IMG/VR virus record: IMGVR_UViG_2565956725_000004
Length of the DNA: 44,271 nt
Source: a virus
Lineage: Duplodnaviria > Heunggongvirae > Uroviricota > Caudoviricetes
Strand: one strand, 5' to 3'
In this document: in pieces, positions 91 through 44,271 of the stretch
Position numbering within the stretch: the stretch's first letter is position 1
Layout of the letters: every line of letters starts with the position of its first letter
Made by a program: the position numbers and the translations under genes
The notes under the pieces: generated by a model
Seen by the model: the letters and a program-made list of their open reading frames with translations, nothing else
The model's database searches: none
What the model was told of the DNA's origin: nothing

Positions 91-165
91 ATGACGTTGT
101 CTCCTTATTTGCAAGAGGTGGCGAAGCACCGCACTTTTGCCATTATTTCTCACCCCAATAATTAA
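91..165 (+). pseudogene. prfC: Truncated 5' fragment of host peptide chain release factor 3 gene (first ~22 codons, then divergent sequence and a stop)
   Basis: ATG at 91 translates [22 protein letters not shown] then NN-stop; this matches the remembered RF3 N-terminus up to the point where RF3 continues with the GTP-binding loop; recall-based, not searched. Confidence 0.6.
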
Positions 166-385: not shown

Positions 386-1600
386 ATGGCGCTGTCTGAT
401 GCGTGGTTGCGTTCAGTCGTTGGAAAGGAACGTGATAAGGTTTTGGTTAAATCCGATCGTGATGGTCTGTCTGTCAGAGTATCACCGAAAGGTCGCGTAG
501 TGTTCCAATATCGTTATCAATGGGCAGGGAAAGGTGAGCGTCTTGATATCGGAACTTACCCGGCAACTGGATTAAAAGAGGCCAGAGAAGAAGTTATTCG
601 TCTCCGTGGTGAACTCGAGTCAAACCGTAATCCACGATTGGTCAAGCAGGCTGAAAAACGAAAAGCTACTGAAGCCATGACGGTAGAGTCTGTGATCCGT
701 GCCTGGTATGAAGCATATTGTGTAAAAAATAAAAAAGGTTCTGAACAGATACTCCGCTCGTTTGAGCTGCACCTGTTCTCTAAAATCGGGAATATCCCTC
801 ACGATGCAGCTACATTGCATGATTGGTTAGAAGTCCTGGAGCCTCTTAGCACTAAGACTCCAGCAATAGCAGACCGATTGCTAATTAACGCAAAGCAGGC
901 CCATGTCTGGGCGTATAAGAGAAAGCTCATTGAAACTCGCCCGCTGTCGGATATCACGGGTAAAGATATGGATATCCGTAAAGGTCAGAAGAAACGGTTT
1001 CTGACACATGATGAAATTAAAATCCTTTATGCTGCGATCGATGGTTCTCGAATGGTTCCTAAATACCGGGCCTTCATTAAACTATTGCTTCATTTTGGTT
1101 GCCGTAGTTCAGAGCTAATTACCGCCAGGGTGGACGATTTTGATTTCATTAATAAAGTATGGACTGTACCACCAGAACGACATAAGACTGGGGAGATAAC
1201 AGGCGAACCGCTAAAGCGGCCCATTATTGAACCGGTTGAAGAGCTTATAAAGTACGCTATTTCTATGAACAATGGTTCCGATATGCTTTTTACTAAGGAA
1301 GGAAGCAGGGAACCCGTTGGTCGGACATCATTGCAGTCGCTGCCTTACAATTTAATGCAGTATGCATGGCGGCGTTTGGGTTATCAATTCCCTCATTGGT
1401 CTCTTCATGATTTGAGGCGAACAGCACGAACAAACTTTTCTGATCTTACTGCGCCTCATATTGCAGAAATTATGCTAGGTCATAAACTGCCAGGGGTATG
1501 GCAAGTTTATGACAAGAGCGATTATCTAGAAGAACAGCGTAAAGCCTACCAAGCGTGGTGGGAGAGGGTTGAATCGATCGTTACTTGTACTGGTTCATAA
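386..1600 (+). CDS. int: Tyrosine recombinase, P4-type phage integrase
   Basis: 404-aa ORF; C-terminal HxLRRT-like motif (LHDLRRTARTN) and terminal Tyr region typical of tyrosine recombinases; sits beside the att junction. Confidence 0.9.
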   Translation: MALSDAWLRSVVGKERDKVLVKSDRDGLSVRVSPKGRVVFQYRYQWAGKGERLDIGTYPATGLKEAREEVIRLRGELESNRNPRLVKQAEKRKATEAMTVESVIRAWYEAYCVKNKKGSEQILRSFELHLFSKIGNIPHDAATLHDWLEVLEPLSTKTPAIADRLLINAKQAHVWAYKRKLIETRPLSDITGKDMDIRKGQKKRFLTHDEIKILYAAIDGSRMVPKYRAFIKLLLHFGCRSSELITARVDDFDFINKVWTVPPERHKTGEITGEPLKRPIIEPVEELIKYAISMNNGSDMLFTKEGSREPVGRTSLQSLPYNLMQYAWRRLGYQFPHWSLHDLRRTARTNFSDLTAPHIAEIMLGHKLPGVWQVYDKSDYLEEQRKAYQAWWERVESIVTCTGS

Positions 1601-1975
1601 TCGAAATGATATTTTGCATATCTAGTACGCAATAAAATATGACAGTCCGCTTTGAGCTGCGGACATTGCTAGCAGCATTTTCTGTGAAGTAACGGGAGGT
1701 TGTTCAATATTGCCTCTGAAAAGGATAACCATTCAATTCTTCATTGAAAAAACTCATCGAAGATTTTATGGAGGGATGCAATTTATTTTGAGCGAATTTA
1801 ATTCATCACTAATGATCCTACATAGTTATTGCCTTGCTCACTAAAAGGTGAGATTTCATTAGCTCACCAACAATAATTAAATAGGATCATTAGCACTTTA
1901 TATCAGGCTATAATTTTAATAAATTACGTTATTTAAAGCCATTTTCTCCATCAAGTAATATCTTCATGCTAATGT

Positions 1976-2992
1976 TCACTTTTGTTTTAGCTTTATAATT
2001 TCTGATATCATAGTTGTTAGCTTTGAATCGGAAAGATTCTGCAGTCTATCTTTCTCAATAGAAACTGTAGTTTGTCCCTTTTCTAATATGAAATTTCTTT
2101 CTGTTTTCATTAAAAGCATTGCCAACTCTTTTATCATGTCTTCGTTCTTGAATTCTTGAGCATATTTTAGAGACATGACTTTCATCTCAATATTTGTGAT
2201 TTCATTCTGAAAATATTTGATTTCGTCAAACCCATTTTTATAGAGGCGTAGAAAAAAATAAGCAAACAATTCAACGACTATTACAAATGATAATTTAGGA
2301 AGGTGATGAATAAAAAATCCCACCCCATCCACAATGTCTGGCGCGCTGTAAAGAAAGTAAGCAAGAGATAATATCCCTGTCAACGCAATTATTGTTCCGA
2401 TTGCAAGGTTAAGCCCACCTCGTCGATTGAGTCTGTCTATTTCAGACTCTAATCTTAGAACCATATCAGTATGGAGTTTATGTAAGCTGTAGCTCTTCTT
2501 AAAATCAGATATATCGCTTTTTAGGCTGTTATCTGCCAGAAGTATTGTGTTTCCAATTATTCTCTTTTTTGCATCGGATATTAACTTCTCCCTTTCACTC
2601 TCTGTTATTTCAATGGAAACTCCGGAAGATGTTCTATTTTCAATTTCGCTCAATTTTTTATTTAGCTTAACTATTTCTTTGTGAAAAATATATCTCGTGT
2701 TTTCAATATCTCTACCACCAATTCCTTTGTTTAAATAAGAAGTCATTATTGCGACAAAAGAACCAACAAAAACTAGGGCAGTTGCTGTAAATAAAATAAA
2801 CTCTTTCTTCTCGTTTATTAAATTTACTATTGATGATGATTCCAGTTGAATGTCTGAAAGCGAAGTTTTAAGCACAAAATTCATCACAGGTGAAACCATG
2901 ATTATGGCAACAACTATAATAAATCCATATTTTTTTATAATGTAAATAAGAAGACCAAATAAATCTTTCATTTTATCTTTTACCTGAAACAA
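1976..2992 (-). CDS. Hypothetical multi-pass membrane protein with coiled-coil segments (moron, possible phage exclusion or abortive-infection protein)
   Basis: 338-aa ORF with about four hydrophobic helices separated by Lys/Glu-rich predicted coiled-coil regions; strongly A+T-rich codon usage unlike flanking phage genes; flanked by A+T-rich non-coding DNA. Confidence 0.6.
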   Translation of the reverse strand: MFQVKDKMKDLFGLLIYIIKKYGFIIVVAIIMVSPVMNFVLKTSLSDIQLESSSIVNLINEKKEFILFTATALVFVGSFVAIMTSYLNKGIGGRDIENTRYIFHKEIVKLNKKLSEIENRTSSGVSIEITESEREKLISDAKKRIIGNTILLADNSLKSDISDFKKSYSLHKLHTDMVLRLESEIDRLNRRGGLNLAIGTIIALTGILSLAYFLYSAPDIVDGVGFFIHHLPKLSFVIVVELFAYFFLRLYKNGFDEIKYFQNEITNIEMKVMSLKYAQEFKNEDMIKELAMLLMKTERNFILEKGQTTVSIEKDRLQNLSDSKLTTMISEIIKLKQK

Positions 2993-3344
2993 ATTTTTAT
3001 TAAAGTAACTTAAAAAATGATTGATTGCAAGATTTACTATTGCTGTTCATTTTAAATTACTATACCCCCCTATGCATACATATAATCCCATAGGGGAGAA
3101 GTTTATTAGTTAGTTAAGTTGAAGGCTATACCTACAATCTAATTCCCCTCCAACCTAACATGCACAAGCGTCAACCTATCGGTAGTGATAATTTTATGAG
3201 GATACGTATAAACAAGATTCTGAGTTGCTCCTATTCATTAAGACAATACATTTTGTAACTTCTGCTTTTGGCTCAGGGTGGGGTGTGAGATTAGGTTTGG
3301 CTCTGTGCCATAGATGTGTCAGTTCACATCTGAGCTAATACACA

Positions 3345-3539
3345 TTACTCAATCACTCCAGCAAACCTATATATCTTGTGTGACGCCCATTTATTTGGGC
3401 ATGATTTAATATCAGGATCTGGAAAATCAGGCCTGTATTTCTGGCCAGTTCTCCAGTTTACGCTGTTCCAGCGAAGAACTGTCGATACTGAAACGCCACA
3501 GAAGTCGGCGACTTGTTTAGTTGTCATTAAGTTGTTCAT
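3345..3539 (-). CDS. xis: Excisionase / AlpA-TorI-like small DNA-binding protein
   Basis: 64-aa ORF with HTH-like segment (TTKQVADFCGVSVSTVLRW); positioned between integrase and early-left genes. Confidence 0.7.
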   Translation of the reverse strand: MNNLMTTKQVADFCGVSVSTVLRWNSVNWRTGQKYRPDFPDPDIKSCPNKWASHKIYRFAGVIE

Positions 3540-6896: not shown

Positions 6897-7409
6897 ATGG
6901 GAGCGATTTATGTTAAACGTTTGATTCTGTCGGTAGCACTGATAATACCGATAGCATCCAATGCTTCTGATGCTTTGAACCAGCCGAGCAGTAGTCTAAA
7001 TGATGGTGTTGAGACTTTTTTTATTTCCTGCTTTGATATGCCTCAGGAAACAACTACTGATATGGACGCTTGTCAGAGAGTTCAGTTAGCTCAGGTTAGT
7101 TGGGTTAAGAATAAGTATTCGGTGGCCGCCCTGAATCGTTTGAAACAAGACAACAAGGATGATCCACAGCGTCTGCAGGAATTAACTGCTTCTTTTAACG
7201 CGGAAAGTGAAGCTTGGACAGAATTAATTGAGAAAGCGTCAAAGTCCGTCCAGGTTGATTATGCAGGAGGAACTATAGCTGGCACTGCAGTTGCATCACG
7301 TCAAATTGGTCTTCTGGAATTACAATCCCACGATATCTGGGAGCACTGGCTACGATTCGAGGACTCAACTCCTCCTCTTTTGCCAGAACCAAAGTTCAAA
7401 TCTGAGTAA
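6897..7409 (+). CDS. Secreted or periplasmic moron protein (possible DUF1311/LprI-like)
   Basis: 170-aa ORF with N-terminal signal-peptide-like hydrophobic segment; transcribed against the flanking leftward operon; followed by a strong terminator. Confidence 0.55.
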   Translation: MGAIYVKRLILSVALIIPIASNASDALNQPSSSLNDGVETFFISCFDMPQETTTDMDACQRVQLAQVSWVKNKYSVAALNRLKQDNKDDPQRLQELTASFNAESEAWTELIEKASKSVQVDYAGGTIAGTAVASRQIGLLELQSHDIWEHWLRFEDSTPPLLPEPKFKSE

Positions 7410-7435
7410 TAAGTCATCCAGATTGTTAAAGAGCG

Positions 7436-7459
7436 AAGCGTCCTATAGGGCGCTTTTTT
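7436..7459 (+). terminator. Rho-independent terminator after the secreted moron gene
   Basis: 8-bp stem AAGCGTCC/GGGCGCTT (one G-U) with TATA loop, followed by a T-run. Confidence 0.6.
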
Positions 7460-7633
7460 GTTGCTAACGAATCATCCTGGACTTCATATGCCCCAGGCGG
7501 CTACTTCGTGGTCGTCCTGACTGTTCGTTTTTGACATTTACTGACCGCTTACGACACATGCACCATGCACCGTGTTGCAACCAGATTTTGTTGTAATCCT
7601 GTAGTTGGTCTGGAACAAAAGATAAAATTAAAA

Positions 7634-7670
7634 TGCGAGATGTGCAAGCAATATTTTGCGAGATGTGCAA
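7634..7670. promoter_or_regulatory. Candidate left operator (oL): two exact 14-bp direct repeats
   Basis: TGCGAGATGTGCAA at 7634..7647 and 7657..7670; half-sites resemble the TTGCG/CGCAA motifs in the cI-cro intergenic region. Confidence 0.45.
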
Positions 7671-7681
7671 AATGATGGGTG

Positions 7682-7704
7682 ATAAAAAGCCACCTTTCGG
7701 TGGC
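7682..7704 (-). terminator. Rho-independent terminator downstream of cI (minus strand)
   Basis: GCCACC-GAAA-GGTGGC hairpin followed by a U-run on the minus strand, 20 bp past the cI stop. Confidence 0.55.
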
Positions 7705-7724
7705 CGATGGATGGGATATTGAAG

Positions 7725-8417
7725 TTAATTATGTCTCTTAAGGGTTTGCGACTGACTGATTAAGACCTTTCCAAAGACCATGAATCGGTGTTCGTTTTCG
7801 CTAGTAATTCCCCATTCACGGTAAATCTGGTTATCAGAAATCACCAGCAGTTTGTCAGGAATCATTTGAAGTCTTTTAACGTATATTTTGTCATCAAAAC
7901 CAAAGACATATATACCATCACCATCAAACTGATTGATGCTGACATCAACGAAGATGAGATCTCCTGGCTCAATGGTTGGACACATACTGTCCCCACGAAC
8001 GTTGATAACTTTGATGTGATTGGCTGGTCGTCCGCCGAACATTGATACAGCATTATCAGTTCTGTATTCGATGGCATGAATCACATCAATGACATCACCG
8101 CCCTGGATAAGGCCATTTCCCGCACTGGCACTGATATCCAGCATTTCAATACGGAACACATCCTTCACCTGCGCAACATCCTCATCATTACTGTTTTTAT
8201 ATACAGTATTACTTTTGAGGGCAGAGGTAAAGAGATCAGCAATATCAACACCTAAGCTCTTGGCAATATTACTCAGTGTTTGTTCGGTAAATTGTTTCTG
8301 CTTACCCGTTTCTAAGCGCGAGATGTTCGCCGCATCTACTCCTATTGCTTCAGCGAGATCGGCGATTTTCATGTTCTTCGCTTGGCGAAGTTGTCTGACT
8401 CGGTTTCCTATGTTCAT
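7725..8417 (-). CDS. cI: CI-like prophage repressor (XRE HTH N-terminus, LexA-like S24 peptidase C-terminus)
   Basis: 230-aa ORF; N-terminal HTH (QLRQAKNMKIADLAEAIGVDAANISRLETGK); C-terminal S24-type Ser/Lys autocleavage region (GDSM ... KR); divergent from cro. Confidence 0.9.
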   Translation of the reverse strand: MNIGNRVRQLRQAKNMKIADLAEAIGVDAANISRLETGKQKQFTEQTLSNIAKSLGVDIADLFTSALKSNTVYKNSNDEDVAQVKDVFRIEMLDISASAGNGLIQGGDVIDVIHAIEYRTDNAVSMFGGRPANHIKVINVRGDSMCPTIEPGDLIFVDVSINQFDGDGIYVFGFDDKIYVKRLQMIPDKLLVISDNQIYREWGITSENEHRFMVFGKVLISQSQTLKRHN

Positions 8418-39264: not shown

Positions 39265-41331
39265 GTGAATATGGCAGTACAGATTTCAGGCGTGCTGAAA
39301 GACGGTGCAGGAAAACCGATACAGAACTGCACCATTCAGCTCAAAGCAAAACGTAACAGCACCACGGTTGTGGTGAACACGGTGGCCTCAGAAAATCCGG
39401 ATGAAGCCGGACGTTACAGCATGGATGTCGAGTATGGCCAGTACAGCGTTATCCTGCTGGTTGAAGGTTTTCCGCCTTCACATGCCGGGACCATCACCGT
39501 GTATGAGGATTCTAAGCCGGGGACGCTGAATGATTTTCTGGGTGCCATGACGGAAGAGGATGTCATGCCGGAGGCATTGCGTCGTTTTGAGGTAATGGTG
39601 GAGGATGTGGCACGCAACGCTGAAGCCGCCTCTCAGAGCGCAGCGGCAGCAAAGAAATCAGAAACAGCAGCGGCATCGTCCAGGAACGCGGCGAAAACAT
39701 CAGAGACGAATGCAGGTAACAGCGCGAAAGCGGCAGCTTCTTCAAAAACAGCCGCACAAAACGCAGCAACAGCGGCAGAACGTTCAGAGACAAATGCCCG
39801 TGCGTCAGAAGAAGCCTCCGCAGACAGTGAAGAGGCTTCCCGCCGTAATGCAGAGTCAGCCGCTGAAAATGCCGGAGTCGCCACCACAAAAGCGCGGGAG
39901 GCTGCAGCAGACGCAACAAAGGCCGGGCAGAAAAAGGATGAGGCTCTGTCGGCAGCGACACGAGCTGAAAAGGCGGCAGACCGCGCAGAAGCCGCAGCGG
40001 AAGTGACTGCAGAGCCCTATGCGAATATAGTGCCGCCGCTGCCTGATGTGTGGATACCGTTTAACGATTCACTGGATATGATTGCGGGTTTTTCTCCGGG
40101 CTATAAAAAAATAGCTATTGGTGACGATGTGGTTCAGGTCGCCAGTGATAAACAGGTTAATTTCAGTCGCGCATCAACGGCAACATATATCAACAAATCT
40201 GGCGAACTGAAAACGGCGGAAATTAATGAGCCGCGATTTGAGTGTGATGGCCTGCTTATTGAGGGACAAAGAACGAACTACATGCTCAATTCGGAAAGTC
40301 CAGCCAGCTGGGGGAAGTCATCAAACATGGATGTGCCCGAAACCGGGACGGATAGTTTTGGTTTTACTTATGGAAAGTTTGTCTGCAACGATTCTCTGGT
40401 TGGGCAAACTTCGGCTATTAATATGGCATCAATTGCTGCAACAAAGTCAGTTGATGTCTCAGGCGATAATAAGTACGTGACAACCTCATGCCGTTTTAAA
40501 ACAGAACGACAGGTAAGGTTACGTATACGGTTTGATAAGTATGATGGTAGTGCAACAACTTTTCTTGGCGATGCGTACATTGATACGCAAACGCTTGAAA
40601 TTAATATGACAGGTGGTGCTGCCGGCAGAATTACGGCACGAGTCAGGAAGGATAAGACCACAGGCTGGATTTTTGCAGAGGCAACGATTCAGGCAATTGA
40701 TGGTGAGTTAAAAATAGGCTCTCAGATACAGTATTCTCCTGAGCGGGGTGGGGCAACAGTATCTGGTGACTATATTTATCTTGCCACCCCACAAGTAGAG
40801 AATGGGCCGTGTGTATCATCATTTATTATTTCAGGAGGCAGCGCAACGACAAGAGCCAGTGATTTGGTTAGTATCCCCACCAGAAATAATCTTTATAAGT
40901 TACCATTTACTTTTTCACTTGAGATTCATAAAAACTGGGATATTGCACCAAACGCCGCACCCCGCGTGTGGGATATAGCAGCAGCCAATACCGGGCAATC
41001 AGCAATTGCAGCAATCAACAGAGGTAGTGGTAAGTTATATATGAGTCTGTCAAACCCTTCAGGCTCGTATGTTAATAGCGCAGCGACAGATGTATTTGCA
41101 GAGAAAACCACATTTGGATGTATTGCAAAAGCTGATGGTTACTTTCATGTGGTGACAAATGGTAAAGCGGTTAATGAAGTTTATTGTGAATATAATGGCG
41201 TGACCGCTGATAAAAATATCCGATTTGGAGGGCAGACGAATACTGGAGAACGACATCTGTTTGGCCATATTCGCAATTTCCGCATATGGCATAAAGAATT
41301 AAATGACAGGCAATTAAAAGAGGTCGTATGA
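39265..41331 (+). CDS. stf: Side tail fibre protein (lambda Stf-like N-terminus, Ala-rich shaft, divergent C-terminal lectin-like domain)
   Basis: N-terminus MAVQISGVLKDGAGKPIQNCTIQLKAKRNSTTVVVNT matches lambda Stf; C-terminus (HLFGHIRNFRIWHKELNDRQLKE) resembles LamG/concanavalin-like domain endings. Confidence 0.8.
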   Translation: MNMAVQISGVLKDGAGKPIQNCTIQLKAKRNSTTVVVNTVASENPDEAGRYSMDVEYGQYSVILLVEGFPPSHAGTITVYEDSKPGTLNDFLGAMTEEDVMPEALRRFEVMVEDVARNAEAASQSAAAAKKSETAAASSRNAAKTSETNAGNSAKAAASSKTAAQNAATAAERSETNARASEEASADSEEASRRNAESAAENAGVATTKAREAAADATKAGQKKDEALSAATRAEKAADRAEAAAEVTAEPYANIVPPLPDVWIPFNDSLDMIAGFSPGYKKIAIGDDVVQVASDKQVNFSRASTATYINKSGELKTAEINEPRFECDGLLIEGQRTNYMLNSESPASWGKSSNMDVPETGTDSFGFTYGKFVCNDSLVGQTSAINMASIAATKSVDVSGDNKYVTTSCRFKTERQVRLRIRFDKYDGSATTFLGDAYIDTQTLEINMTGGAAGRITARVRKDKTTGWIFAEATIQAIDGELKIGSQIQYSPERGGATVSGDYIYLATPQVENGPCVSSFIISGGSATTRASDLVSIPTRNNLYKLPFTFSLEIHKNWDIAPNAAPRVWDIAAANTGQSAIAAINRGSGKLYMSLSNPSGSYVNSAATDVFAEKTTFGCIAKADGYFHVVTNGKAVNEVYCEYNGVTADKNIRFGGQTNTGERHLFGHIRNFRIWHKELNDRQLKEVV

Positions 41332-42387: not shown

Positions 42388-44271
42388 TTACTCCTGAATT
42401 CCTGGTAATACTTCCGGTATAATGGTAATTGGGTTTTGGGATGGGGAGATTTCAAATGGGAAAGTCGTACGCTCAAACAATGGTGAGACTATATCAACTT
42501 TAAGCTTAAGCTGTTGCTCAGTAGATTTATTCGTTAATTTGAATACTGTTGCATCAACCCCGATGGTAGATCTAGCTAGTGTATCAAGTTCTTGATCGCT
42601 ACTGTTCAATGTCATTTCAAGCATCACTGGTGTCAACATAGCACCGAGCTTCATACGAAGGAGACGATCTTCATCGACAAACTGATTTGGAGCCGTATGA
42701 TTTAAGGCATCATAAATATCATTATAACACATTGCAAGTTCTTTCTGAGTTTTAGCATCAAATCCAGCAGCTTCTAGTGCAGCACGATCTGGTTTTCCAG
42801 TTCCAATTTCTTCTATCGTCCCGTAATAGTTTTCAATTGCTCCTCGACGTAAAAAAAAGCACCCAAGATTACTTAATGCCTTCAAAAGCACATTGTATTT
42901 TCTACAAAGACTTTCGGCTCGAGAAGATGCTTCTGTACCAAAGCTTGTTGGATCAGTAAGAATACGAGCTAACGTCACGCGACGTTTGCTATCAGCCCCA
43001 GAATCTTTACTTGACCAATTAGGATAACTTTCAGCTGCTATCTCAACCTCTTCCTTAAAGTCAGTCATGAAGGTTGTAATTTCTGCACGCAAATCTCTGT
43101 CAAGATCAGCGAGACTTGTTCTTCCGACTTGGTCTGCAATCGCCCTAGCTTCTGTTAATCCACTGAAATAGTTGACTAAATTATTATCGTCAGCTAAGGC
43201 GTCGAGATCTGCAAGCAAACTAACTCGTTTATTCATCAAGCGAAACAGTTTGGCAGCTTCGATAAACTCTCCCTTACCAGTAACTGGAAGTATCTGAGCA
43301 TTACGTGCAAGGAGACGGAGACCGAACTTTCTTGCAAGTTGTGTTACTATTATTTCATCACTAGGACCTTCGACTAATAAAACATGCTCAGCGAACATAG
43401 CTGTTCGATGGGTAGCGCTAAGGCGTGCTATTAATGCGGCCAGTTTTGTGCTGCAAAGAATATCTGCATTTTTTGGTATCTGAACTGGAGGTTGCTGTGC
43501 GGAGTTGAAAAAGATTATTTTTGATAACTCTTCAATTCGTCGCAGCGGTAGTATTGAAGGTGAATGTGTCGCTATGATTATCATTTTTTTCTTTGGATTT
43601 TGAGGATCACCGGCTACCAGTTCCATCTCTTCGAGCAGAAATGCTTGATGCTGTGGGTGTAGGGAGATTTCTGGCTCATCGATAATCAATGCACCTATTT
43701 CGTCATTATGAATTGCAGTTAGTAACGAGACAACCTGCAGTATACCGCTGGCTTCGTGATTAGCTGCGTAGCCATCGCCGCCAGTGACGGATGTTATTCT
43801 AATAGTCATTCCATTTTGAGACCACTTGAGCTCAACGCTTCGATCAAACAACTGCTGTAGGCGTGCTTCAATCTTTAGTTTGAGGTCTGGTCTCTGGTCT
43901 AAGATCATTAAGTCACCAGTAACACTTTCATAATTCCACCATTGCTCAACGTAACTCGCGTTTCCAATAGCAGCATCGCTAGAATTGATGCCATAAGGAG
44001 AATCTGAGCTAGATCTATAGGATTCAAATGGACTACACCGTCCTGCCGAAAGAAAATGTACTTTTCTATTTTGTCCAATTATTCGGTTTTCACTCAATAA
44101 TTTTGATTTTATTGCACGCAGTGCTCGGGTTTTACCACTACCATTTGGCCCGACCATCGTTGTAATACCTGGTCCGACTTGTATTATCGCTTTTGTGGAT
44201 GAATTATCGACTAATGAATATTCAACGTCCATCGGCCACATAAGGTCTTGATCTGCAGTATCTAAGCTCAT
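42388..44271 (-). CDS. OLD-family nuclease (N-terminal ABC-type ATPase, C-terminal Toprim domain); N-terminus at window edge
   Basis: Walker A GPNGSGKT, Walker B ALIIDEPEISLHP, ATHSP, then Toprim-like LLVEGPSDE and DLDALADD; A+T-rich codon usage; the ORF reaches the last base of the window, so the true start is unconfirmed. Confidence 0.8.
   Translation of the reverse strand: MSLDTADQDLMWPMDVEYSLVDNSSTKAIIQVGPGITTMVGPNGSGKTRALRAIKSKLLSENRIIGQNRKVHFLSAGRCSPFESYRSSSDSPYGINSSDAAIGNASYVEQWWNYESVTGDLMILDQRPDLKLKIEARLQQLFDRSVELKWSQNGMTIRITSVTGGDGYAANHEASGILQVVSLLTAIHNDEIGALIIDEPEISLHPQHQAFLLEEMELVAGDPQNPKKKMIIIATHSPSILPLRRIEELSKIIFFNSAQQPPVQIPKNADILCSTKLAALIARLSATHRTAMFAEHVLLVEGPSDEIIVTQLARKFGLRLLARNAQILPVTGKGEFIEAAKLFRLMNKRVSLLADLDALADDNNLVNYFSGLTEARAIADQVGRTSLADLDRDLRAEITTFMTDFKEEVEIAAESYPNWSSKDSGADSKRRVTLARILTDPTSFGTEASSRAESLCRKYNVLLKALSNLGCFFLRRGAIENYYGTIEEIGTGKPDRAALEAAGFDAKTQKELAMCYNDIYDALNHTAPNQFVDEDRLLRMKLGAMLTPVMLEMTLNSSDQELDTLARSTIGVDATVFKLTNKSTEQQLKLKVDIVSPLFERTTFPFEISPSQNPITIIPEVLPGIQE

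Follow-up and report, generated by a model that had tools for sequence, protein, structure and literature searches.

What does the A+T-rich DNA between the integrase gene and the adjoining early genes of a prophage encode, and could it help the lysogen against other phages? The question is raised by a viral DNA of 44,271 nucleotides (IMG/VR record IMGVR_UViG_2565956725_000004; Caudoviricetes), hereafter the window, in which a first-pass annotation had placed, within region 1601..3344, a foreign gene (moron) for a membrane protein with several transmembrane (TM) helices. We find that this gene is real, selected and horizontally mobile, and constitutes a single-gene cargo cassette. Its product (WP_000653746.1) belongs to a family that is large, unannotated and structurally unmatched, in which a conserved core of two TM helices plus cytoplasmic helices is joined to a fast-evolving N-terminal membrane module. 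That the protein protects lysogens against other phages is, in our estimate, an evenly balanced proposition.

A selected gene in an exchangeable cassette

The gene had originally been described as a 338-amino acid (aa) open reading frame (ORF; 1976..2992) between int and xis. The long minus-strand frame is indeed there, but its start has to be moved from TTG 2992 to ATG 2971, which is used by RefSeq and by all homologues; the PHROGs v4 profile phrog_5157 aligns with aa 8-338 of the long version, and TTG 2992 is out of frame in a sister allele of 84% amino-acid identity (P0004). The A+T-rich noncoding flanks, put at about 350 bp each by the first-pass annotation, correspond to intergenic sequences of 375 bp (1601..1975) and 373 bp (2972..3344). 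The G+C content of the gene is 31.6%, as compared to 49.3% for the window; across the region it varies between 24 and 38% in 200-bp windows, with the gene and its proximal flanks at 24-31%.

The ratio of nonsynonymous to synonymous substitution rates (dN/dS) between the window allele and the sister allele is 0.27. When nine allele pairs are considered by segment, the ratio decreases from 0.5-0.9 for residues 1-85 (TM1-loop-TM2) to 0.13-0.21 for residues 86-170 and 0.06-0.09 for residues 171-331. Rather than the broken or poorly conserved frame that had been named as a possible counter-argument, related prophages thus contain an intact ORF under purifying selection. Low G+C content, missing annotation and the lack of a strong consensus promoter could suggest that the ORF is spurious, or decaying within A+T-rich junk; such a reading is nevertheless refuted, with practically no probability left to it, by 2,805 homologous clusters, dN/dS values of 0.06-0.27 and intact ORFs across hundreds of assemblies.

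Region 1601..3344 is 100% identical in many Escherichia coli chromosomes of the phylogroup-B2 type, and 99.9% identical in strains UTI89 and NU14. Copies with 99-100% identity are present in 52 complete E. coli genomes and diverged alleles in about 90 more, so that the distribution is patchy (142 of 5,426 complete genomes). The sister allele, found in more than 300 blocks of an assembly collection, adjoins a slightly different integrase gene in the same slot and shares the whole cassette, flanks included, at about 90% identity. In SCU-306 (L003, NZ_CP053231.1; hit H40), which is 94% identical to the window, nearly all genes of the region are annotated as frameshifted; this genome was set aside because frameshifts throughout look like an error-rich assembly and not like real decay.

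The genomic setting is that of a prfC-integrated lambdoid-type prophage of E. coli. In the RefSeq annotation of Combat2C1, yjjG is followed by a 69-nt fragment, the integrase WP_001218287.1, WP_000653746.1 ('hypothetical protein', 331 aa), DUF551, yfdR, yfdQ, yfdP and XRE-type repressors. The 69-nt fragment (window 91..159), which we take to be codons 1-23 of prfC (release factor 3, RF3) followed by a stop, occurs a single time in the window, downstream of yjjG and upstream of int. Since the first 23 prfC codons sit between yjjG and int, the left attachment site is placed inside the 5' end of prfC, and the intact prfC must be located past the right end of the window; the same fragment bears out the earlier proposal of a prfC-integrated prophage with the ORF adjoining int. 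On the other side of the cassette, the 64-aa product of 3345..3539 has a sub-threshold match to HTH_17, its equivalent in a related prophage is annotated as 'DNA-binding protein', and the gene probably codes for an excisionase of the AlpA/Xis type.

In prophages with an identical integrase and other cargo, the common sequence ends at about position 1657, and related prophages match again from about 3284; the exchangeable unit (Table 1) is delimited by this break and resumption. In strain MS20654 the cargo that follows integrase WP_001218287.1 itself is another one, and further cargos are found in related prfC prophages: the slot contains a gene for a 413-aa plus-strand protein in MS20654 (L089:4194-5435), CE10 (L181:3691-4932) and CREC-591 (L182:3682-4923), and a 183-aa plus a 62-aa ORF in TUM12357 (L090). 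Variable cargo at a fixed slot, along with the difference in G+C content, sustains the foreign-moron reading; atypical composition, a variable slot and separation from neighbouring operons, all of them traits of morons, are observed, and a promoter of its own is predicted. The right boundary of the cassette (about 3284) is spanned by an 8-bp direct repeat, TTTGGCTC (3267-3274 and 3296-3303), which may be due to chance or be a recombination trace of cargo exchange.

A large family without annotation

The sole library match of the protein was phrog_5157 (function unknown), of which it is a full-length member: aa 1-331 of the ATG-started protein cover profile positions 1-331 of 331 (E-value 2.7e-226, 751 bits). 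Phrog_5157 is a phage protein group, whereas the wider family is far larger, spans multiple phyla and is mostly chromosomal. A word-indexed search retrieved 1,080 homologues, and an exhaustive profile search yielded 2,805 representatives at 50% identity with E≤1e-3 (1,523 with E≤1e-30), nearly all of them 300-380 aa long. Members were found by a scan of genome contigs in Proteobacteria, Bacteroidota, Acidobacteriota, Planctomycetota, Nitrospirota and other phyla.

The query had no significant match in Pfam, NCBIfam or PADLOC, in line with the initial statement that no family could be assigned by eye, and no transporter was matched in Pfam, NCBIfam or the Protein Data Bank (PDB), homology to a housekeeping transporter being what the first-pass annotation had held to speak against its proposal. 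No consistent Pfam family emerged from 125 diverse members, among which weak matches were obtained to DUF2207_C (24 members), MotA_ExbB (2) and SLATT_1 (1). The query and 7 diverse homologues produced only insignificant matches to PADLOC-DB v2.0.0; that of the query, to 'Effector 2TM' (E 0.0075), falls in the non-conserved aa 18-166. Sequence searches of the PDB, with the single sequence as well as with a 125-sequence profile, returned coiled-coil noise only, and fold comparison with the PDB revealed no informative relative. No paper was found under WP_000653746 or phrog_5157, although the E. coli prophage-defence screen of Brenes & Laub 2025 might already include the gene.

Predicted topology and conserved core

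Membrane topology was assessed by a 19-residue hydropathy scan combined with the positive-inside rule. The protein is predicted to be a helix-rich inner-membrane protein with a cytoplasmic N-terminus (N-in) and four TM helices: TM1 (about residues 16-34), TM2 (58-76), TM3 (189-207) and TM4 (223-245). The stretch between TM2 and TM3 (77-188, about 110 aa) is predicted to be cytoplasmic and helical and contains 21 Lys/Arg residues, TM3 and TM4 are joined by a 15-residue loop devoid of Lys/Arg, and residues 246-331 are predicted to form a basic, helical cytoplasmic tail of about 86 residues. The alternation of hydrophobic helices with charged helical segments noted at the outset is therefore recovered, both by the scan and by two AlphaFold2 models, which are all-helical.

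The model computed with a 125-sequence alignment is confident (mean predicted local distance difference test, pLDDT, 83; predicted template modelling score, pTM, 0.68). In this model a cytoplasmic helix runs into TM3 (148-208) and TM4 continues for about 30 cytoplasmic residues (216-274); four further helices (86-114, 124-145, 277-289 and 302-330) presumably pack around these two. Invariant or near-invariant residues in the same alignment lie almost all in the C-terminal half, with a conserved core at aa 173-306 (motifs in Table 1).

Genomic contexts of the family

ORFs were called in 80 loci from 80 species and all neighbours were clustered. The biggest recurrent non-self cluster was present in 4 of the 80 loci, at inconsistent positions and strands; the gene is regarded as stand-alone because no neighbour cluster exceeds this number, and a partner gene or operon is ruled out by the same clustering. 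Pfam domains of 125 immediate neighbours were mixed, comprising OLD-like AAA_15+TOPRIM (2), CAP12/Pycsar TIR (2), KAP NTPase, DUF4411, integrases (2), transposases (3) and many housekeeping enzymes.

The 10 contexts inspected in Gammaproteobacteria all proved to be cargo regions of mobile elements, and in 4 of them recognised or predicted defence genes lie within about 4 kb. The family member is found between icd, which serves as attachment site, and int in Kosakonia and Enterobacter roggenkampii; at a prophage end on the tail-fibre side, adjoining the gene for a 310-aa HEPN protein, in E. coli strains of the sequence type 80 (ST80) kind; between DUF968 and lysis genes, adjoining an AbiJ/Abi_C gene, in Citrobacter; after tail-fibre genes in Pantoea (near gtrABC) and in Siccibacter (with GmrSD_N and AAA_15/DUF3696 genes); at a prophage tail end in Proteus; and about 5 kb from an integrase gene, near a ParE toxin gene, in Ectopseudomonas. 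In Vreelandella, it is directly downstream of Kiwa kwaA-kwaB plus an integrase fragment; this locus of Vreelandella venusta (L183:5293-6839 and 7001-8062), where 162 bp separate the member from the kwaA-kwaB pair upstream, is the clearest defence-island context.

The HEPN protein of E. coli (WP_042058399.1, 310 aa; L002:4304-5236 and L096:8770-9702) is encoded 786 bp downstream of a 73%-identical allele, the two genes together occupying a prophage end near vat and tRNA-Pro. The DefensePredictor supplement counts its gene among the predicted novel defence genes, with a score of 9.4 and 29% identity to PD-T7-4/DUF4145, and the protein had no match in Pfam, PADLOC or among PDB sequences. A known two-gene system of HEPN plus TM protein is unsupported, given the 786 bp between the genes, the listing of the HEPN protein as putatively novel, and the window copy, which is without a HEPN neighbour.

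Members were present on 74 viral contigs of IMG/VR, 52 of which measure 20 kb or more. On 22 of these 52 the gene falls in the terminal 10% of the contig (binomial p = 2e-4, a value that is indicative only, as the contigs are non-independent and their borders predicted), and among all 74 loci there are 26 with an integrase gene no more than 1 kb away. The commonest neighbouring PHROGs were integrase (at least 14), Q-like antiterminator (6), Ant (4), holin (3) and DNA methyltransferase (3); these are classical moron slots. Plasmids contributed only 7 weak matches. Taken together, these loci document recurrent capture of the gene in prophage cargo slots, occasionally beside defence genes.

The prophage of the window seems to bear an OLD/Gabija-like defence gene at its other end, because the ORF at 42388..44271 (minus strand, at least 627 aa, reaching the window edge) possesses a P-loop (GPNGSGKT) and a TOPRIM-like 'VEGPSDE' motif, and matches the OLD-family endonuclease 6p74 (E 2.9e-9) and GajA (E 8e-5). 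This ORF follows a tail-fibre gene (39265..41331) and a 97-aa membrane ORF.

Repeats and transcription signals in the flanks

The perfect inverted repeat upstream of the gene, which the first-pass annotation had pointed out as a possible operator, is present (Table 1), but the operator function is rejected, since the repeat is not conserved in the sister allele and is statistically uncompelling. When the 373-bp upstream region was shuffled with its dinucleotide composition preserved, 19% of the shuffles contained a perfect 8-bp repeat with a loop of 3-30 nt; only with the post-hoc demand of at least 5 G/C per arm does it become rare (0.45% of shuffles). As RNA, 3067..3096 would fold with -17.4 kcal/mol (z = -2.0). 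In the sister allele the corresponding sequence is TTCCGTATAAGG...GC-TGGAGG, with both arms destroyed, no compensating changes and the surrounding upstream DNA kept. Relative to the single plausible -35 element, the repeat is furthermore placed about 37-66 bp upstream; a regulatory role within the cassette is improbable.

The block TCTTGCAATCAATCATTTTTT, situated 40-70 nt downstream of the repeat, is conserved in the sister allele and holds a putative promoter identified by eye (Table 1), from which we infer that the cargo gene has a weak promoter of its own. A scan for consensus promoters did not flag it. A Shine-Dalgarno-like AGGT (2985..2982) precedes the ATG by 10 nt. No terminator-like site was detected between xis and the cargo gene, and read-through from the leftward early operon is therefore possible after induction.

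Downstream of the gene, the minus-strand RNA of 1809..1893 is predicted to form a long hairpin (-33.9 kcal/mol, z = -4.2), with conserved arms and a diverged loop in the sister allele. Possible roles of this hairpin are stabilisation of the 3' untranslated region, transcription termination or service as a recombination site. The hairpin at 1645..1664, its stem likewise conserved in the sister allele, coincides with the left edge of the variable cassette and looks like a terminator of the leftward transcript, possibly a bidirectional one. The sole flank ORF of at least 40 aa (1710..1844, plus strand, 44 aa) is broken by indels in the sister allele, and a search of the flanks for known RNAs in Rfam gave only a chance match to a microRNA.

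Table 1. Features of the cargo cassette and its borders (window coordinates), and conserved residues of the encoded protein.
Feature	Position	Strand	Remarks
Tyrosine integrase gene (WP_001218287.1)	386..1600	+	Convergent with the cargo gene
G+C-rich hairpin GTCCGC-N8-GCGGAC, then minus-strand T-rich run	1645..1664	-	45 nt past the int stop
Exchangeable cargo cassette (~1.6 kb)	~1658..3283		Delimited by sequence common to prfC prophages with other cargo
Inverted repeat, 23-nt arms (87% complementary), 39-nt spacer	1809..1893	-	83-167 nt past the stop codon of the cargo gene
Cargo coding sequence, 331 aa + TGA stop, identical to WP_000653746.1	1976..2971	-	RefSeq, phrog_5157 and family alignments
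7-codon extension from TTG 2992, outside the true gene	2972..2992	-	Comparison of starts
Candidate weak sigma-70 promoter: TTGCAA (3030..3025), 17-nt spacer, TACTTT (3007..3002)	3002..3030	-	Identified by eye
Perfect 8-bp inverted repeat CCCCTATG-N14-CATAGGGG	3067-3074/3089-3096		~10 bp as RNA
Gene for 64-aa HTH_17 (AlpA/Xis-like) DNA-binding protein	3345..3539	-	Same strand as the cargo gene
Helix preceding TM3	R173, L174, E177		
TM3 entry and small-residue stripe	R184, G185, N188, L189, G192, G199, L203		'NRRGGxNL..G..G'
TM4 with mid-membrane Glu	P225, R226, E234, F236 to K245		FAYFFLxLYK, aromatic inner-leaflet stretch
Polar juxtamembrane cluster	E250 to E262		'EIKYFQNExTNIE' motif
Polar juxtamembrane cluster, continued	T290, E291, R292, N293, L296, Q300, T302, E306		'TERNFxLxKGQT' motif

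Possible functions of the cargo protein

The explanation we favour among those considered combines the cargo cassette with a stand-alone membrane protein that forms an oligomeric pore and answers phage infection by depolarisation or by a block of entry; taken as a whole, it falls somewhat short of an even chance. In such a scheme, a weak promoter belonging to the gene would drive its expression in the lysogen, to which transcripts of the leftward early operon reading through xis would add once the prophage is induced. The protein would oligomerise through its long helices, the TM3/TM4 hairpins, with the small-residue stripe and E234, would line up as a gated ion-conducting pore, and detection of the incoming phage would fall to the bundle of cytoplasmic helices, the variable N-terminal module or both. 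Opening of the pore would then collapse the membrane potential (abortive infection) or prevent genome entry, and the lysogen would be protected. Triggered depolarisation is preferred to a steric block of DNA entry because an oligomeric gated channel best accounts for the long helices continuous with TM3 and TM4, the small-residue stripe, the intramembrane Glu and the polar cluster next to the membrane; this specific gated-channel mechanism is, for all that, tentative and would have to be called doubtful on its own. The fast evolution of the N-terminal module (dN/dS 0.5-0.9) is compatible with the pattern expected of a specificity determinant engaged in an arms race. Whether the family represents a widespread new class of single-protein, membrane-embedded anti-phage sensor-effectors, that is, a 2-TM-core channel built around an invariant Glu, equipped with a hypervariable N-terminal specificity module and unrelated to Rex, Kiwa, Zorya, SLATT and every solved fold, is more speculative still than protection as such, and we would not expect it to be so.

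Several observations weigh against a role in defence. Only about 5% of the immediate neighbours in the 80-species sample are of a defence type, a tyrosine recombinase is found within 8 kb in just 12 of the 80 loci (15%) and many neighbours are housekeeping genes; with so few defence-type neighbours and integrases, and so many housekeeping ones, the family is not confined to defence islands or mobile elements. No defence model matches the gene, and the contexts of most chromosomal members are not recognisably mobile or defensive. The gene was not found among the DefensePredictor entries listed, and neither its DNA nor its protein had a match in INPHARED (50,697 sequenced phages). The alternative cargos of the slot match nothing in Pfam or PADLOC either: of the early description of the int-xis interval as a hotspot for exclusion and abortive-infection genes, the variability therefore stands, as attested by these cargos, whereas the slot is not demonstrably one for known defence systems. 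Faster evolution of the N-terminal module could instead reflect relaxed constraint on a membrane anchor, and oligomerisation, pore formation and trigger are what we purely infer.

The most serious rival is an accessory membrane function outside immunity, such as a contribution to fitness or lysogenic conversion through envelope stress, ion homeostasis or membrane organisation, to which we assign a lesser but real share of the probability. It would account for the occurrence in many phyla, where the genes around most chromosomal copies are housekeeping or unrelated ones and only 15% of the loci contain an integrase gene at 8 kb or less, for the unmatched defence models, and for the strongly conserved core, which suggests one conserved biochemical activity; it sits poorly with the patchy distribution (142 of 5,426 complete E. 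coli genomes) and foreign composition, with the repeated capture in classical moron slots of unrelated prophages, and with adjacency to Kiwa, AbiJ, GmrSD and HEPN genes. Exclusion without cell death, in which the periplasm-exposed part of the variable N-terminal module (loop 35-57) would interfere with ejection or tape-measure proteins of the incoming phage and so stop its DNA from entering, in the manner of T4 Imm, P22 SieA and HK97 gp15, and the core would be a scaffold, appears unlikely. The gene is stand-alone prophage cargo beside int, as expected for an exclusion gene, and the only periplasm-facing parts of the protein are the fast-evolving module and the short, poorly conserved TM3-TM4 loop. 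Yet the strongest conservation, comprising invariant polar residues and the mid-membrane Glu, is cytoplasmic or in the inner leaflet and hard to fit to a steric periplasmic blocker; moreover, most family members reside outside prophages, and no similarity to known superinfection exclusion (Sie) proteins was found in PHROGs or Pfam.

Two further rivals would attach the family to known membrane proteins, and both are very improbable. The predicted topology resembles that of MotA in its 4 TM helices, its cytoplasmic tail and a large cytoplasmic insert that separates TM2 from TM3, UniRef gives the name 'MotA/TolQ/ExbB proton channel domain-containing' to one member (P0097), and 2 of the 125 members have a weak Pfam MotA_ExbB match (best E 0.004), as if the protein were a divergent proton-channel (stator) subunit of the MotA/ExbB/TolQ type. 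This possibility is largely refuted: the query has no match to PF01618 and P0097 none at E≤0.1; hhalign comparison of the family with MotA+TolQ+ExbB gave 3.3% probability, although with a template profile of 3 sequences this is a weak test; no MotA, ExbB or ZorA chain appeared among the top 60 structural matches; and there is no partner of the MotB/ExbD/TolR/ZorB type, with no recurrent neighbour in more than 4 of the 80 loci and no conserved flank ORF of at least 40 aa. Scarcely better placed is a nucleotide-activated 2TM effector of the SLATT or CBASS-Pycsar type whose signalling enzyme has been lost or separated. The conserved unit is indeed a 2-TM hairpin with flanking helices, the weak 'Effector 2TM' match in PADLOC (E 0.0075) and the SLATT_1 match of 1 of the 125 members (9e-4) point the same way, and two neighbours in GTDB genomes carry a CAP12/Pycsar TIR domain. 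These matches, however, are below family thresholds and restricted to very few members, that in PADLOC involves the non-conserved aa 18-166, and no conserved cyclase or SMODS gene is nearby in the 80 loci or among the Pfam domains of the 125 immediate neighbours.

Significance

The main reservoir of anti-phage functions that remains lies in uncharacterised cargo genes of prophages, and the gene described here is a good experimental candidate, rather than an established system, for a defence hypothesis drawn from context. It is tractable, being a single 1-kb gene with no required partner in the well-studied uropathogenic strains UTI89 and NU14, and the targets for mutation are clear: E234, the KYFQNE and TERN motifs, and the variable N-terminal module. 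Should it confer phage resistance, a new and widespread family of membrane effectors would be added, the int-xis interval of prfC prophages would become a defence hotspot and its other cargos, such as the 413-aa protein, would merit testing. Should it confer none, a conserved and hitherto unannotated family of bacterial membrane proteins would still have been recognised.

Comparison with known systems

Morons that lie next to int and encode membrane proteins are a well-known kind, whereas this protein family is not a known one. Lambda RexB, P22 SieA and SieB, T4 Imm and HK97 gp15 are inner-membrane proteins of exclusion or abortive infection, which the cargo protein resembles in its cargo position, as a small multi-TM protein, in the expected expression in the lysogen and in a plausible block or depolarisation at the level of the membrane. 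The cargo protein is larger, has TM2 and TM3 set apart by a predicted cytoplasmic domain of about 110 aa that is helical, would need no RexA-like partner, and shares no detected sequence or profile similarity with any of them. MotA, ExbB and TolQ, including ZorA of Zorya, are similar in their 4-TM topology with a large cytoplasmic insert, in the long helices continuous with TM segments and in a conserved acidic TM residue. SLATT and the 2TM effectors of CBASS and Pycsar likewise have a 2-TM hairpin with flanking helices, and a TIR effector gene occasionally adjoins a member of the cargo family; in contrast to these effectors, the family has no nucleotide cyclase associated with it, and such matches as a few of its members show are sub-threshold. 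KwaA, the 4-TM sensor of Kiwa KwaAB, is also a 4-TM inner-membrane protein, and one family member is located directly downstream of kwaA-kwaB. The two are not homologous by any consistent Pfam match, that to KwaA included, and while KwaA works with KwaB, the cargo protein stands alone.

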